Below, one piece after another: positions 6,413-13,345 of a stretch of 34,049 nt of DNA. Position numbers and translations under genes: made by a program. The stretch is from Candidatus Woesearchaeota archaeon (GTDB lineage: Archaea > Nanobdellota > Nanobdellia > SCGC-AAA011-G17 > JAFCDX01), in the NCBI GenBank assembly GCA_018302265.1, contig JAGVZV010000029.1, positions 1 to 34,049 on the forward strand. The letters run 5' to 3'. Each line of letters begins with the position of its first letter. Position 1 is the stretch's first letter. A model generated the notes under the pieces. That model saw only the letters and a program-made list of their open reading frames with translations. It had not been told where the DNA came from and made no database searches.

Positions 6413-6449
6413 TTAGAAAGCTTTTTATTTGTTATATGTACGTATTATT

Positions 6450-7643
6450 ATGGACATATCTGATTTAGTAAAACCAACCCAAAAGGAAGAGCAAAAGTCT
6501 AAAGAGATTGTTAGCAAATTTCTTGATCGGCTTAATAATAAATTAATCGCAGCAGAGGCAATTGTTGGCGGTTCTTTTGCAAAAGATACCTGGCTGAAAG
6601 GGGATCATGATATTGATATATATACAATATTCAGCAGGAGATATGATCCAGCTAAAATATCCGAGATACTTGAAAAATTACTGAGAAAAGAATTTTTGTT
6701 CATAAAAAAGATCAATGGCTCAAGAGATTATTTTCAGATCAAATTCAGAGGTTACTTATTTGAGGTCATTCCGGTCTTGAAAATAGACAACCCTAACGAG
6801 GCAGAGAATATCATGGACATATCTCAAATGCATGTCTCATGGGTGAAAGAAAATATCAACGGGTTAAACAGTGATGTAAGAAAATTAAAATTATTCATGA
6901 AGGCAAACAACTGCTACGGCGCTGAGTCATACATCAGGGGATTTTCTGGATATGTATCAGAAATCTTAGTTATATATTACGGTTCTTTTGGTAATGTACT
7001 GAAAAATGCCATCCTTTGGAGGGAATTCGAGATTGTTGATACAAAAAATAGAAAAATATTAATTAAAAATATGGACAAATCAAAGATAAGCCCATTGATA
7101 GTAATAGATCCTGTGCAGAAAGAGAGAAACGCTGCAGCTGCGCTGTCAAAAGAAAAATTTGATTTATTCATAAAGAAAGCTAGAGAATACATAAAAAAAC
7201 CATCCATCAAGTTTTTTAGCCGTACATTTGTTGTGCCTGAAGATGCAACAGTGCTGAAAGTAAAACCTCTTGTTGGGAGAACAGATGTAATAGGAGCTAA
7301 ATTACTGAAGGCATACGAATACATCAGAGACAAACTGGATGAGGAGTTTGGCATATCTGACAGTTCATGGAACTGGGATGGAAAAGCAGTATTCTGGTAT
7401 ACCACAAAAACAAAAGAGCTGGCGGAATACACAAAACACTATGGCCCTCCAGTAGAGGATGAAACCAATCTCGAAAAGTTTAAGGAAAAATGGGAAGGCT
7501 ATAAATTATTCATGGAAAATGACAAAGTCTACATTAACATCAAGAGAAAACACACAAAATTAAAGCCATACTTGAATTATTTAGTAAAGAATGATGATTT
7601 GAAAGATAAAATTAAATCAATAAAAATCGTCAGAATAAAATAG
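6450..7643 (+). CDS. cca: Archaeal (class I) CCA-adding enzyme
   Basis: GGSFAKDTWLKGDHDIDI, CYGAESYIRGFSGY, PLIVIDPV..RNAAAALS, H.GPP motifs; ATG 6450 preferred over TTG 6429. Confidence 0.95.
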   Translation: MDISDLVKPTQKEEQKSKEIVSKFLDRLNNKLIAAEAIVGGSFAKDTWLKGDHDIDIYTIFSRRYDPAKISEILEKLLRKEFLFIKKINGSRDYFQIKFRGYLFEVIPVLKIDNPNEAENIMDISQMHVSWVKENINGLNSDVRKLKLFMKANNCYGAESYIRGFSGYVSEILVIYYGSFGNVLKNAILWREFEIVDTKNRKILIKNMDKSKISPLIVIDPVQKERNAAAALSKEKFDLFIKKAREYIKKPSIKFFSRTFVVPEDATVLKVKPLVGRTDVIGAKLLKAYEYIRDKLDEEFGISDSSWNWDGKAVFWYTTKTKELAEYTKHYGPPVEDETNLEKFKEKWEGYKLFMENDKVYINIKRKHTKLKPYLNYLVKNDDLKDKIKSIKIVRIK

Positions 7644-8561: not shown

Positions 8562-9212
8562 ATGAAAGAGAATAATGATGTGTTGAAAACAGGAACTACA
8601 ACTGTTGGCATTGTATGCAGTGACGGTTTGATACTAGCTGCAGATAAGAGAGTAACAGTTGGGATGGGATATGTGATTAATCACGATATTGAAAAAGTGA
8701 TTATTCTAAGCGATAACATAGCTGTAACTATGGCAGGCAATGTATCTGATGTTCAATTATTGCTGAAATTACTGAAAGCAGAAATACAGATCAAGAAAAT
8801 GAGGCGTGAAAAAGAAGGCTCTGTAAAAGAAGCTGCTAATCTATTGGCAAGAATGGTATATAATAACATAAGAAAGATGTCGATGCTGCAGGGTGTATCG
8901 CACTTTATTCTTGGCGGAAGAGATGAAAATGGTTTTCACTTATATGATATATACCCGGATGGCTCTATAAATGAGGTAAAAACTTATGTTTCTTCTGGTT
9001 CGGGTTCTCTAGCAGGGGCTTACTCTGTTTTTGATACTCTTTACAGAGAAGGAATCACAATTGCTGAGGGCATCAAACTGGCTGGCAAGGCAATTAATGC
9101 AGCATTGCAGCGAGACGTGTTTTCCGGTGATGGGATTGATATAGTTACAATAACCGACAAAGGCATCAAGAAGGTATTGACTAAACTATTAAACACAAGA
9201 CTGGAAATTTAA
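8562..9212 (+). CDS. psmB: Proteasome subunit beta
   Basis: KTG|TTTVG propeptide site, LAADKR, SGSGS, RD..SGDG; adjacent to aCPSF1 as is conserved in archaea. Confidence 0.96.
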   Translation: MKENNDVLKTGTTTVGIVCSDGLILAADKRVTVGMGYVINHDIEKVIILSDNIAVTMAGNVSDVQLLLKLLKAEIQIKKMRREKEGSVKEAANLLARMVYNNIRKMSMLQGVSHFILGGRDENGFHLYDIYPDGSINEVKTYVSSGSGSLAGAYSVFDTLYREGITIAEGIKLAGKAINAALQRDVFSGDGIDIVTITDKGIKKVLTKLLNTRLEI

Positions 9213-9237: not shown

Positions 9238-11142
9238 ATGACAAATATACTGGATGAAATAACTAAGTTGCTCCCTGATAAAGAGAAGGCTGGCATCAGC
9301 GACTCTTATTTTGAAGGAGCAAATATAGTTCTTTATACAAAAAATAAGGAATTTTTTCTTGATAATAATGGACTGATAAGGGAGATTGTAGATAAAATCA
9401 AGAAAAGGGTTGAATTAAGGTGCGATCCTTCTATAGTGGAAAGCGAGGAAAAATCCAAAACTGTGATAGACAAATTACTGCCCAAGGAAGCAGGTATTGG
9501 CAATATAATATTTGATCCTCAGAGATCTGTGGTTATAATAGAAGTAAAAAAACCCGGGCTAGCAATAGGCAAATCAGGGGACATATTAAAAGAAATAAGG
9601 AAACAAACACTCTGGGTTCCAATAATAAACAGGACTCCAGCGCTGAAATCAACAATTATAGAAAATATCAGGACGGTATTATACGAGAATAATGATTACA
9701 GGAAGAAGTTTCTTAACAAAACAGGAAAGAGGGTTTATGAGGGATATACGCGGGACAGAAAACACGAGTGGGTTCGTGTAAGTTTTCTTGGCGGAGCAAG
9801 AGAAGTAGGAAGATCCTGCTTATTATTACAAACGCAGGAATCAAGAATATTAATGGATTGCGGAATCAATGTTGCTGCTCCAGAAGAGGAAGCATATCCG
9901 TATCTTGATGCTCCAGAATTTAAGCTGGAAGACATAGACGCTATTATAGCAACTCATGCACACATAGATCATATAGCTATGATTCCATTATTGTATAAGT
10001 ATGGATTTACAGGACCTACTTACGCAACAGAACCAGTTCGTGATATCATGGCTCTATTGTGCCTTGATTATATTGAGATTGCGCAAAAAGAGGGAAGGAA
10101 GGTTCCGTATTCCAGCACTGACATAAAAAATATGGTCAAGCATACTATATGCCTGGATTATGAGGAGGTTACTGATATAACCCCGGATGTCAGGTTAACT
10201 TTGTACAATTCAGGGCACGCCCTTGGAGCATCAATGGCACACCTGCATATTGGAGAGGGATTGCATAATTTGTTGTATACTGGTGATTTTAATTTTGAAC
10301 TTACTAATCTGCTTGCTCCAGCTGCAACAAAATTCCCAAGGCTCGAAACCTGCATAATGGAAAGCACTTATGGTGGATCAGACGACAAGATCACAACAAG
10401 AGACGAATCAGAGCAGCAGTTCATCAAAGTTGTCAAGGAAACCGTTGCAAAGAACGGAAAGATACTGATGCCTATTCTTGGTGTTGGAAGATCGCAGGAA
10501 ATAATGCTGATAATTGAAAGATTGATCAGGGAGGGGAAATTAGACAAAATACCCATCTACATGCAGGGAATGTGCTGGGATGTTACTGCAATACACACAG
10601 CATATCCGGATTTTTTCAATATGAAAATAAAGAAGCAGATATTCCATCAGGATGTTAATCCATTCTTGTCTGAAATCTTCAAAAGAGTTGGATCGCAAAA
10701 AGAAATGGAGCAGGTGATGACAGAATCAGGACCATGCATAATAATGGCAACATCCGGTATGATGCAGGGCGGTCCATCTGTCGAGTATTTCAAGAAATTG
10801 GCTGATAATAAAAATAATGCCCTTATCTTTACTTGTTACCAGGGTGAGGGATCCTTGGGAAGACGATTAGAACAGGGAGATAAGCAGATTAATCTTGGAA
10901 ATATGGACAAGCCCGAGATTATCGAAGTGAAAATGTCTGTAAATTCAATAAAGGGATTTTCAGGGCACTCAAATAGGGAGCAATTAATGAATTTTGTTTA
11001 TAGATTGGATCCAAGACCGAAAAAAATAATTGTTGTCCATGGTGAGAGCTCAAAATGTCTTGACTTGGCAAGCTCTATACACAAGCAGAACAGAATCGAA
11101 ACAAATGCTCCAAAGAATCTGGAAGTAATCAGGTTAAGGTAA
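9238..11142 (+). CDS. fttA: Beta-CASP ribonuclease aCPSF1 (FttA)
   Basis: Two KH domains (KPGLAIGK), LGGAREVGRS, HAHIDH, GH.LG, MESTYG, FSGHS, VHGE. Confidence 0.96.
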   Translation: MTNILDEITKLLPDKEKAGISDSYFEGANIVLYTKNKEFFLDNNGLIREIVDKIKKRVELRCDPSIVESEEKSKTVIDKLLPKEAGIGNIIFDPQRSVVIIEVKKPGLAIGKSGDILKEIRKQTLWVPIINRTPALKSTIIENIRTVLYENNDYRKKFLNKTGKRVYEGYTRDRKHEWVRVSFLGGAREVGRSCLLLQTQESRILMDCGINVAAPEEEAYPYLDAPEFKLEDIDAIIATHAHIDHIAMIPLLYKYGFTGPTYATEPVRDIMALLCLDYIEIAQKEGRKVPYSSTDIKNMVKHTICLDYEEVTDITPDVRLTLYNSGHALGASMAHLHIGEGLHNLLYTGDFNFELTNLLAPAATKFPRLETCIMESTYGGSDDKITTRDESEQQFIKVVKETVAKNGKILMPILGVGRSQEIMLIIERLIREGKLDKIPIYMQGMCWDVTAIHTAYPDFFNMKIKKQIFHQDVNPFLSEIFKRVGSQKEMEQVMTESGPCIIMATSGMMQGGPSVEYFKKLADNKNNALIFTCYQGEGSLGRRLEQGDKQINLGNMDKPEIIEVKMSVNSIKGFSGHSNREQLMNFVYRLDPRPKKIIVVHGESSKCLDLASSIHKQNRIETNAPKNLEVIRLR

Positions 11143-11176
11143 TCTTTATAAATTATAAAATTTATTTCTTTTACAT

Positions 11177-11384
11177 GCCGAGGTGGCACAACCTGGTAAT
11201 GCGCTGACATAACAAAATTATGGTGCAAGATTGCTATCAAGCATTTACTGATTGATGCGTTATGCTGAATATGAAGTAAATTACCACGCAAACATCCAGT
11301 GTCCTTACGGACTTGGGGGTTCAAAAGAGCTTTTCTTAAAAGAAAAGTTCGCAAAAGAAAGTTCTGAAATTCCCCCCCTCGGCG
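11177..11384 (+). tRNA. tRNA-Ser(GCT) with three introns (29/30: 11207-11228; 37/38: 11237-11293; 59/60: 11326-11370)
   Basis: Spliced 84-nt product: acceptor GCCGAGG/CCTCGGC, anticodon arm CTGGA-TTGCTAA-TCCAG, variable arm GTCC/GGAC, T arm GGGGG-TTCAAAT-CCCCC, discriminator G. Bulge-helix-bulge-type junctions at all three sites; no encoded CCA. Confidence 0.92.
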
Positions 11385-11539
11385 TTATAATTCAAATTCA
11401 AAGCCTCAGGGTACCTTAGGGGTATCTAAGTTTTAAAAAGAAGTCTTATGGAAAATGATAAATCTGCCCTCAAAAGTAAAATTCAAGTTTGGATGGGAGC
11501 ATAGATAGATTTATATACTACTTAATAAAAGTAACATAT

Positions 11540-12223
11540 ATGGCAAATAAATCAATTATACTAATAAGCATAATTTTTGTAATGGTTTCTTCTCTAGCAT
11601 ATGCAGATTCAGTTACGTCTGAACTTGGAGCAATAACATCTGCATCAGCATGCAATTCAGGATGGAAATGTCAACTTCCTTATTTTATGGCTTATAGATC
11701 GTCAACATGCAGCTGGAGCGACAGGGAATATTGCTTGTTCGGATGTTCAGTAGGCAAATGCATAATAAAACCAATAAAGATAGTGGGTGATAGCGATTGT
11801 GTTCTAAAAACAAACCAGGCACTTACACTTTTGAAAAAAGAAGCAAGAGTACATTATAATGTTGTAACTAAATCTGTAGGGGTTATAAAATGTGTAGACA
11901 AGGGTTTTGGAATATATGTGGGAATAAATCCCCCAAAATATGTGGTTGGAAAAGCTACAATAAATGCAGGCACAATCTGGTATGCAAGCACGATAGTCCA
12001 TGATGCATGCCACTCAAAACAATATCATGATTATCGGGTAGACCATCCATATGCTACAGTGCCTTTGAAGATATATACTGGAAAAAATGCAGAAGCTTTA
12101 TGCCTTAATGCACAGTATGATGCTTTGGTTAAAATTGGTGCGAATCAAATAATTTTAGATCACATAAAAAACATCATAAACTCTGAATACTGGGAAATTC
12201 CTAAAAAAGACAGATGGTGGTAA
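11540..12223 (+). CDS. Secreted Cys-rich protein with a zincin-like domain (HDACH variant motif)
   Basis: Signal peptide from ATG 11540, a six-Cys module, and STIVHDACH followed by a distal AE. Confidence 0.65.
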   Translation: MANKSIILISIIFVMVSSLAYADSVTSELGAITSASACNSGWKCQLPYFMAYRSSTCSWSDREYCLFGCSVGKCIIKPIKIVGDSDCVLKTNQALTLLKKEARVHYNVVTKSVGVIKCVDKGFGIYVGINPPKYVVGKATINAGTIWYASTIVHDACHSKQYHDYRVDHPYATVPLKIYTGKNAEALCLNAQYDALVKIGANQIILDHIKNIINSEYWEIPKKDRWW

Positions 12224-12295
12224 GCAAATTATTGCTTTATTTACTATTTAATGCTCTCAGAAGGTTTTTAAATATAAAAATTAACAATTAAACCT

Positions 12296-13345
12296 ATGAA
12301 AAAGAAGGGGTTAGTGATTCTAATATTTATAATTCTATTATTAATTTTAGTGATGTTAATAGTTGGATTTTTTACAGGAACTGCTGAAAGAAAAATAGTT
12401 GAAAATAATTCTAATGATAATGTTACATCTGTTGTTGAAAATGAGGAGAATATAACTACCCCAATAAAAGTTGAGCAAAAAGTAGAAATAAATAAAGATA
12501 TTGAAAAAATAGTTGAAGAATATAAGAAAAATCCAGATTTAAATTTAACTAAATCTATTGAAAGTTTGCCTAATATCAAAACTTCTAGCGGAGGGTATAA
12601 AATAGGGAGTAAATGGATTGAACAAACAGTTATAAGATTATTTGATGAACAAGAATTAGTAAGGGTTGATATTACTGGAGGTAATATAGATAATATTTTA
12701 TCTAGTTTAGGAAATGATTTTCAAGCCGAAGAAATAGCTAGAGATATCGGTGCTTTTAAAGGAAATATTACCAAAGATGGATTCATTAAATTATTAAACG
12801 ATCCTAATGTTGATGTAATAGAAATACCAAAAATAGTAAGTGCTCTACTTGATTATAGTATTTTATAGTATTCCATTAATAAATATAGATAAAATATCTG
12901 ATGATTTTAAAGGTGATGGACAAACTATTTGTTTAATAGATTCAGGAGTTGATAAAACCCATATGGCTTTATCTGGTAAAGTTATAGGAGAACATTGTTT
13001 TTGTAGTGAAAGAGATGGTTTATCTCCTCACTGTTGTCCAAATAATTCTACAGAACAAAATGGTGATGAAAGCGCATTAGATAATAATGGTCATGGAACA
13101 CATGTTGCGGGAATCATTGTTTCTGATGATATAAGTTATAGGGGAGTTGCTCCTAATTCAAAGATAGTTGCTGTTAAAATTTTAAATTCTACAGGAAAAA
13201 TATATCCATATGATATCTCATCTGCAATAAATTGGTGTGTTTCAAATAAAAATAAATATCATATTACAATAATTAGTTTGAGTCTTGGTGAAGGAGCTTA
13301 TACCAGTCAAAGCAATTGCGATCAGCAATCAGAAAGTTTAGCAGC
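12296..13345 (+). pseudogene. Subtilisin-like (S8) protease, frameshifted and 3'-truncated
   Basis: MKKKG-TM leader and prodomain. A 10-bp duplication TTATAGTATT (12853-12872) shifts the frame. IDSG and HGTHVAG are present; the GTSMA serine motif is absent. Confidence 0.85.

Follow-up and report, generated by a model that had tools for sequence, protein, structure and literature searches.

The stretch of DNA analysed here (the window, 34,049 nt) is contig C34 of an assembly of 588,803 bases in 44 contigs (81.8% complete, 0.29% contamination). The organism is a Woesearchaeota-type DPANN archaeon; nearly all of the best 80 of the 234 relatives of its EndA endonuclease that we confirmed among 297 candidate stretches of public genomes are titled Woesearchaeota or Nanoarchaeota. 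On the plus strand of the window we identified a candidate gene for tRNA-Ser(GCT) that is interrupted by three introns. The initial annotation had proposed this gene with four exons, and each of its exon ranges matches the sequence. The features of the locus and of a second gene relevant to it are:

6429-7643, plus strand: gene for an archaeal CCA-adding enzyme (PF09249 at 6873-7217, 129.4 bits)
11145-11152, plus strand: TATA-like box TTTATAAA, which begins 32 nt before the tRNA does
11177-11206, plus strand: exon 1, 30 nt; 5' strand of the acceptor stem, D arm, position 26 and anticodon-stem positions 27-29
11207-11228, plus strand: intron 1, 22 nt, at site 29/30, with a strict hBHBh' motif
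11229-11236, plus strand: exon 2, an 8-nt micro-exon; positions 30-37, including the anticodon GCT
11237-11293, plus strand: intron 2, 57 nt, at the canonical site 37/38, with a relaxed motif
11294-11325, plus strand: exon 3, 32 nt; position 38, 3' strand of the anticodon stem, long variable arm, 5' strand of the T stem and the T loop up to position 59
11326-11370, plus strand: intron 3, 45 nt, at T loop site 59/60, with a strict hBHBh' motif; contains a copy of a hairpin repeat
11371-11384, plus strand: exon 4, 14 nt; position 60, 3' strands of the T and acceptor stems and discriminator G, without CCA

The sites 29/30, 37/38 and 59/60 are known positions of archaeal tRNA introns. The gene directly upstream of the tRNA gene (9238-11142) encodes a beta-CASP/KH protein of 634 aa that belongs to the transcription-termination type of FttA (aCPSF1), and the TATA-like box begins 3 nt past the end of this ORF. 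The box is a probable archaeal promoter, a function that we assign from its sequence and position; in nine of the 11 Ser(GCT) orthologs discussed below, such a word begins between -34 and -30. A minus-strand ORF at 10998-11354, which overlaps both the end of the upstream gene and the tRNA and has no Pfam match, was taken as spurious.

Joined by their coordinates, the four exons give an 84-nt product that ARAGORN cleanly assigns as a class II tRNA-Ser(gct), in agreement with the earlier proposal of a three-intron tRNA-Ser(GCT) with an 8-nt anticodon exon. The program folds it with a 7-bp acceptor stem, a 3-bp D stem, anticodon and T stems of 5 bp each, a variable arm made of a 4-bp stem and a 4-nt loop, and a discriminator G. 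The identity elements of tRNA-Ser are a long variable arm, the discriminator G73 and a serine anticodon, and all of these (the last as GCT) are present. The spliced tRNA has a GC content of 59.5%, compared to 33.1% for the window.

The splice motif sought at each junction consisted of a pair of 3-nt bulges, in each of which cleavage follows the second base, with a 4-bp helix between them and an outer and an inner helix on either side. In intron 1, the central helix GCGC/GTGC is paired at all four positions (one of them G-U) between the bulges TG|A and AA|G, with an inner helix of 5 bp and an outer helix of 7 bp. Intron 3 has a fully paired central helix TTCA/TGAA (4/4), the bulges AA|A and AT|T, an inner helix of 8 bp, and the 5-bp T stem as its outer helix. 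The central helix of intron 2, TTGC/GCAA, is likewise complete (4/4) and its 3' bulge AC|A forms properly, but the 5' bulge has no inner helix next to it, leaving a relaxed form that resembles a bulge-helix-loop. Its outer helix has 2 bp in the precursor and grows to 8 bp after the removal of intron 1. The initial annotation had described the motifs of introns 1 and 3 as strict and that of intron 2 as relaxed, and all of the helices and bulges it named are found in the sequence.

A strict motif alone proves nothing in this AT-rich window, because such motifs occur there at background level: with a central helix of 4 bp, flanking helices of at least 4 bp, a length of 15-100 nt and G-U pairs allowed, we counted 90 on the two strands, compared to 68-83 in five shuffles. 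For any specified pair of ends, a strict motif has a chance of about 1.5e-5. By this reckoning from the sequences, the occurrence of two strict motifs exactly on the junctions that rebuild a cloverleaf, together with the evidence from orthologs, is far beyond chance.

C/D box guide RNAs have terminal C (RUGAUGA) and D (CUGA) boxes at guide-length spacing, and the intron of Haloferax tRNA-Trp carries one. Inspection of intron 2 by eye revealed no 5' C box and CTGA words spaced about 6 nt apart, which are not conserved in the related genome G005, and a search of 11100-11460 against Rfam at E<=10 gave no small-RNA family. With the C box absent and the CTGA words not conserved, a guide RNA in intron 2 is unsupported.

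A DNA search of 40 related genomes and the window's own genome yielded Ser(GCT) orthologs from 10 of the 40, all of the same order. The other 30 genomes, with weak matches or matches to other serine isoacceptors, were left out. The introns are distributed among the 11 genes as follows:

Introns 1, 2 and 3, at the same sites: window, G005, G007, G022, G020, G034 (four families)
Introns 1 and 2 only: G010
Introns 2 and 3 only: G029, G019
Intron 3 only: G024
Intron 2 only: G013

All three introns are thus present in 6 of the 11 genes, with the window included; intron 1 occurs in 7, intron 2 in 10 and intron 3 in 9. Wherever a relative lacks an intron (four cases for intron 1, one for intron 2 and two for intron 3), its exons abut exactly as predicted, which excludes a shift of the junctions by even one base. 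The junctions of the earlier proposal therefore match those of relatives that do without one or two of the introns. ARAGORN called all 11 spliced forms as Ser(gct). Across these forms 258 of 264 stem cells are paired, compensatory changes occur in 7 of the 24 pairs, and exon 2 is identical in all 11.

Between the window and G005, which belongs to a different genus, 75 of 84 exon positions are identical, as are 18 of 22 positions in intron 1, 40 of 64 in intron 2 and 39 of 45 in intron 3. The central helix is fully paired in most carriers of each intron (6 of 7 for intron 1, 8 of 10 for intron 2, and 8 of 9 for intron 3). An adjacent inner helix of at least 3 bp is found in 6 of 7 carriers of intron 1 and 4 of 9 carriers of intron 3. 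For intron 2 it is found in just 2 of 10, so this intron appears to be relaxed throughout the group. The 7-bp outer helix of intron 1 is kept in only 3 of its 7 carriers.

Unspliced, the gene escapes the usual programs. ARAGORN reported no tRNA gene in the whole window, nor in the unspliced segment 11101-11460 with or without its intron mode, and Rfam at gathering scores gave no matches in the window. Over the whole genome the Rfam tRNA model had 25 matches at E<=1, of which 23 were above the cut-off and none was in C34; at E<=10, Rfam found nothing tRNA-like in 11100-11460 among six chance-level matches to unrelated families. No serine tRNA was called anywhere in the assembly by ARAGORN or the Rfam tRNA model. 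The earlier expectation that standard tools would overlook this gene is thus borne out for these two tools on unspliced DNA. The program tRNAscan-SE 2.0 includes an iterative routine that handles up to three introns (PMC8450103). The intron mode of ARAGORN, run over the whole genome, produced implausible calls (for example, one with a 501-nt intron) and was not used to assign isotypes. An automated intron solver with a motif filter and ARAGORN as the judge, which halted at the fewest deletions and returned several conflicting isotypes per gene, was too permissive and was dropped from the census of tRNA genes.

For that census, a scan for an acceptor stem with a T arm found 28 loci, 26 of them tRNA-like, and four more from Rfam brought the total to 30, some of which are probably duplicates on overlapping contigs. 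By our own reading of their lengths, 6 of these loci need no intron, one is ambiguous and about 23 exceed the length of a mature tRNA of their class, in several cases by 50-70 nt. The long loci include C1:15677-15822 with its near-twin C2:922-1068, C3:15684-15811, and C7:1711-1843, the last of which we read by eye as Lys(TTT) with two introns. A second three-intron gene, for tRNA-Ser(CGA), lies at G000:C7:8-173 (L026), G000 being the window's own genome. Its introns are at 30/31 (17 nt), 37/38 (28 nt) and 59/60 (37 nt), its anticodon exon has 7 nt, and the joined form is called Ser(cga) by ARAGORN; only two of the four central pairs form in its intron 2.

The codons AGT and AGC make up 31.8% of serine codons in the 318 ORFs of at least 200 aa. 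Another Ser(GCT) gene, which the initial annotation had named, in combination with unspliced RNA only, as evidence against its reading, was looked for in the 81.8%-complete assembly with ARAGORN, the Rfam tRNA model, the acceptor/T-arm scan and a scan for anticodon stem-loops, and was not found. The last of these scans gave 13 contiguous stem-loops with a GCT "anticodon" in the genome. The only GC-rich one, on C13, is the end of a small ORF with a terminator-like hairpin, and the remaining 12 were rejected as Ser(GCT) genes from their flanking sequence alone. The C13 region (minus strand, 8624-8900) contains two adjacent small ORFs, both ending in Gly-Met-Val-Gly-Gly-Cys, the second of which is followed by a GC-rich hairpin and a run of T.

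Three public groundwater DNA runs from three different studies contain contigs that span the gene or nearly so; none of the runs listed for 10400-12400 is of RNA. The contig from the groundwater run X1, which may be the source sample, covers 10900-11595 with no differences; that from X5 covers 11175-11380, also with none; and that from X2 covers 11175-11450 with two differences (11267 and 11281), both inside intron 2. Exon 1 (within the segment 11174-11210) is common to contigs of other community members with up to 100-fold higher summed depth. These contigs diverge right past 11210, inside intron 1. Judging from their sequences, exon 1 seems to be shared by other organisms in the samples, in which a different intron occupies that site.

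The genome has a single endA gene on G000:C20, encoding a 192-aa protein with an N-terminal PF02778 domain and a catalytic PF01974 domain (107.9 bits). Searches of the 81.8%-complete assembly with PF01974, PF02778 and tblastn at E<=50 found no second endA gene. Given that degree of completeness, the assembly may be missing a further EndA subunit or a further Ser(GCU) gene. The best relatives of solved structure are the Nanoarchaeum equitans alpha subunit (E 1e-36) and the Methanocaldococcus jannaschii EndA (E 1.4e-30). The alignment with the latter (1a79) covers residues 47-192 with a single one-residue gap and no insertion, and Y128, H138 and K169, which we take to be the catalytic triad of alpha4-type EndA, match its aligned Y, H and K. 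Alpha4-type EndAs are homotetramers of one protein of about 180 aa, which has an N-terminal and a catalytic domain, and they have no beta subunit. The six residues that precede the His in the N. equitans alpha subunit are absent. From its sequence we classify the enzyme as probably of the alpha type, and we found in it none of the traits that go with broad specificity, that is, an extra subunit, a three-unit fusion or an insertion near the His.

The initial annotation held that multi-intron tRNA genes need a broad-specificity endonuclease, and only part of this applies here. The gene does contain off-site introns and a relaxed one, but the off-site introns 1 and 3 are strict and the only relaxed intron is at the canonical site. 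The broad-specificity enzyme itself was not found in the 81.8%-complete assembly, the only EndA there being a plain alpha type without specificity insertions. The endA gene is flanked (L001, G000:C20:5886-9146) by genes for a tRNase Z-like protein of 300 aa and a 370-aa protein with LAGLIDADG-like and helix-turn-helix domains. A gene for the RtcB ligase is present at G000:C18:11081-12395 (L110, L111) in two pieces on the same strand, 25 nt apart, which correspond to profile positions 1-48 and 48-426.

From these data, the locus is very probably a functional tRNA-Ser(GCU) gene with three protein-spliced introns, and probably the sole such gene of this Woesearchaeota-type DPANN archaeon. A precursor of about 208 nt would be transcribed from the TATA box 32 nt upstream, starting near 11177. 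EndA would cut within the 3-nt bulges, at 11206|11207 and 11228|11229 for intron 1, at 11236|11237 and 11293|11294 for intron 2, and at 11325|11326 and 11370|11371 for intron 3. RtcB would then ligate the exons. Because the gene encodes no CCA, the CCA-adding enzyme would be needed to finish the 3' end, and the product would read AGY serine codons. The data show the anatomy of the gene, its junctions, the conservation and covariation of its sequence, and the existence of genes for these enzymes; we infer that the gene is transcribed, how and in which order its introns are cleaved, and that a single alpha-type EndA makes all six cuts.

Introns 1 and 3 would have complete motifs already in the raw transcript. 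The cutting of intron 2 most likely follows the excision of intron 1 and the ligation of the exons on either side of it, since the anticodon stem, which is the outer helix of intron 2, is interrupted by intron 1. Stepwise cutting and joining is likely because the 8-nt exon would otherwise be held by only two base pairs. The central helix of intron 1 uses G24, C25, G26 and C27 and would therefore compete with the D stem, suggesting that the precursor has a fold other than the cloverleaf. What weighs against this explanation of the locus is that intron 2 has no inner helix while the sole EndA found has no specificity inserts. The incompleteness of the assembly, the background frequency of strict motifs and the loss of the 7-bp outer helix of intron 1 in 4 of its 7 carriers count against it as well.

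The relaxed motif of intron 2 could also be a sign that the locus is a decaying pseudogene, a former tRNA-Ser gene that has received three insertions and gone out of use. The occurrence of the intron 3 repeat outside tRNA genes would fit this, as the intron could then be the insertion of a mobile element. We consider such decay very improbable. The interrupted gene is kept in at least four families of the order with compensatory changes in its stems, the anticodon exon is invariant among the orthologs, and the insertions sit exactly in the geometry of the splice motif. In addition, both of the strain differences in X2 fall within an intron, and no other Ser(GCU) gene was found to serve the 32% of serine codons that are AGY.

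A real gene whose exons and introns are arranged differently, with shifted junctions or only two introns, is highly improbable. ARAGORN does accept products made by two deletions, and is by this token a permissive judge when used alone, but those products have a 4-base anticodon and no isotype. The relatives that lack intron 1, introns 1 and 2, or intron 3 join their exons as proposed, and sliding a junction by one base alters a base that is conserved in those relatives. A chimeric contig, assembled from tRNA fragments of several community members, could be suspected from the many high-depth contigs that share exon 1 (a depth of 865, compared to about 8.5 nearby, in X1) and part after 11210. 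Single contigs nevertheless span the gene in X1, X5 and X2 (with 0, 0 and 2 differences), and the same layout recurs, at 78% identity, in a relative of a different genus; an artefact of this kind is extremely improbable.

Intron 3 contains a copy of a hairpin repeat with the core GAGCTTTTC...GAAAAG. Within its own genome it resembles the T-loop intron of Ser(CGA) and the intron of Gly(TCC) at 37/38, which is a close variant of the repeat. It is also similar to introns of different tRNAs in G004, G005, G024 and G037 and to a non-tRNA site in G019. None of 500 shuffles reaches the score in any of these comparisons; the T-loop intron of Asp(GTC) was also likened to it. It has no likeness to the same-site introns of six Ser(GCT) orthologs from other families (14-158 of 500 shuffles reach the score). 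The exact core pattern occurs at 23 places in 12 of the 41 genomes, compared to 3 for a reversed control. By our reading of the flanks, 10 of the 23 are at 59/60 in tRNA genes, 8 are elsewhere and 5 are chance-like. The repeat sites are as follows:

Window 11326-11370: intron 3
G000:C27:3774-3877: repeat site
G000:C37:1443-1549: repeat site
Loci L112-L133: repeat sites

Among the eight copies elsewhere, one is two bases behind the 3' end of a tRNA and one is upstream of a gene start; the others comprise one flanked by an RNase P-like motif, a tandem cluster (G003:C15), one in a lysine-rich ORF and two in non-tRNA flanks. The copy at L115 (G004:C60, approximately 1165-1280) lies about 18 nt past the word GAGGAAAGTCCG, the conserved core of RNase P RNA; judging by this word, a helix of an RNase P RNA may carry the repeat element. 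A 90% match to intron 3 lies in G019:C27 (L012/L122, 101-277), in frame within a lysine-rich ORF of 58 aa and with no adjoining tRNA. This copy was rejected as an intron, as no acceptable splice motif surrounds it. The sequence upstream of it recurs ahead of a repeat copy in G029:C150.

One tentative explanation, somewhat less likely than not, is that intron 3 is a copy of a small mobile hairpin repeat of the Woesearchaeales that seeds tRNA introns, and that a plain alpha4-type EndA copes with the load. The repeat would provide an inner helix wherever it landed beside a suitable 4-base helix, and new tRNA introns would thereby be seeded at 59/60 and 37/38. The loop-less alpha4-type EndA would have to handle the resulting introns, relaxed motifs included. 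Transposition of tRNA introns has reportedly been described in the Thermoproteales (by Fujishima et al. in 2010), and the present case is similar in that related introns occur in different tRNA genes and at different positions. It differs in that the shared sequence is a hairpin repeat that is also found outside tRNA introns.

Parallels for the gene as a whole are also known in the Thermoproteales. According to PMC8450103, tRNA genes of this group, for example in Pyrobaculum calidifontis, have up to three BHB introns at canonical and off-canonical sites, and in some archaeal tRNAs one intron must leave before the motif of the next can form. The Woesearchaeota gene shares with those described there its three BHB introns at canonical and off-canonical sites. 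Its host differs in being a DPANN archaeon with a genome of about 0.6 Mb and 33% GC, and in having a single alpha-type endA gene in place of the (alpha-beta)2 EndA with a crenarchaeal loop. Within the DPANN, Fujishima et al. 2011 (PMC3239211) and Hirata et al. 2012 (PMC3488258) describe off-canonical tRNA introns in ARMAN-2/Micrarchaeum, as in the present organism, together with a three-unit epsilon2 EndA. As compared with that fusion of about 390 aa, the EndA described here is only 192 aa long and consists of a single N-terminal and a single catalytic domain.

In our literature search on multi-intron tRNAs of Woesearchaeota or DPANN, the only paper found on the topic, besides one on a group I intron and one on Asgard archaea, was that of Kaneta et al. 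2018 (PMC5829648); more may be in print. These authors included a single genome each of Woesearchaeota and Pacearchaeota in their tRNA predictions, linked alpha4-type EndAs of several DPANN lineages to increased tRNA disruption, took incomplete tRNA sets as a sign of unidentified disrupted genes, and urged manual curation. The Woesearchaeota Ser(GCU) gene is a case of such a disrupted DPANN gene. In PMC5829648, only (alpha-beta)2 and epsilon2 EndAs are said to cut non-canonical introns, and the cleavage of relaxed motifs is tied to EndA inserts. Kaneta et al. connect the DPANN EndAs with a loop, L3, whereas the EndA of this genome has no insertion relative to that of M. jannaschii.

The three-intron gene is a well-supported example of a kind already known and usual for this lineage, and it leaves the knowledge of tRNA splicing unchanged. 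It raises the question of how the relaxed intron 2 is handled by a loop-less alpha-type EndA, against the rule given in PMC5829648. It illustrates the gaps that routine tRNA finders leave in DPANN genomes; because the missing genes are present in pieces, tRNAs that seem to be lost from these genomes should not be taken for a biological loss. The gene also provides a clean case, supported by comparison among relatives, for studying how archaea with a one-gene endonuclease process off-site and relaxed introns, and it bears on where tRNA introns come from.
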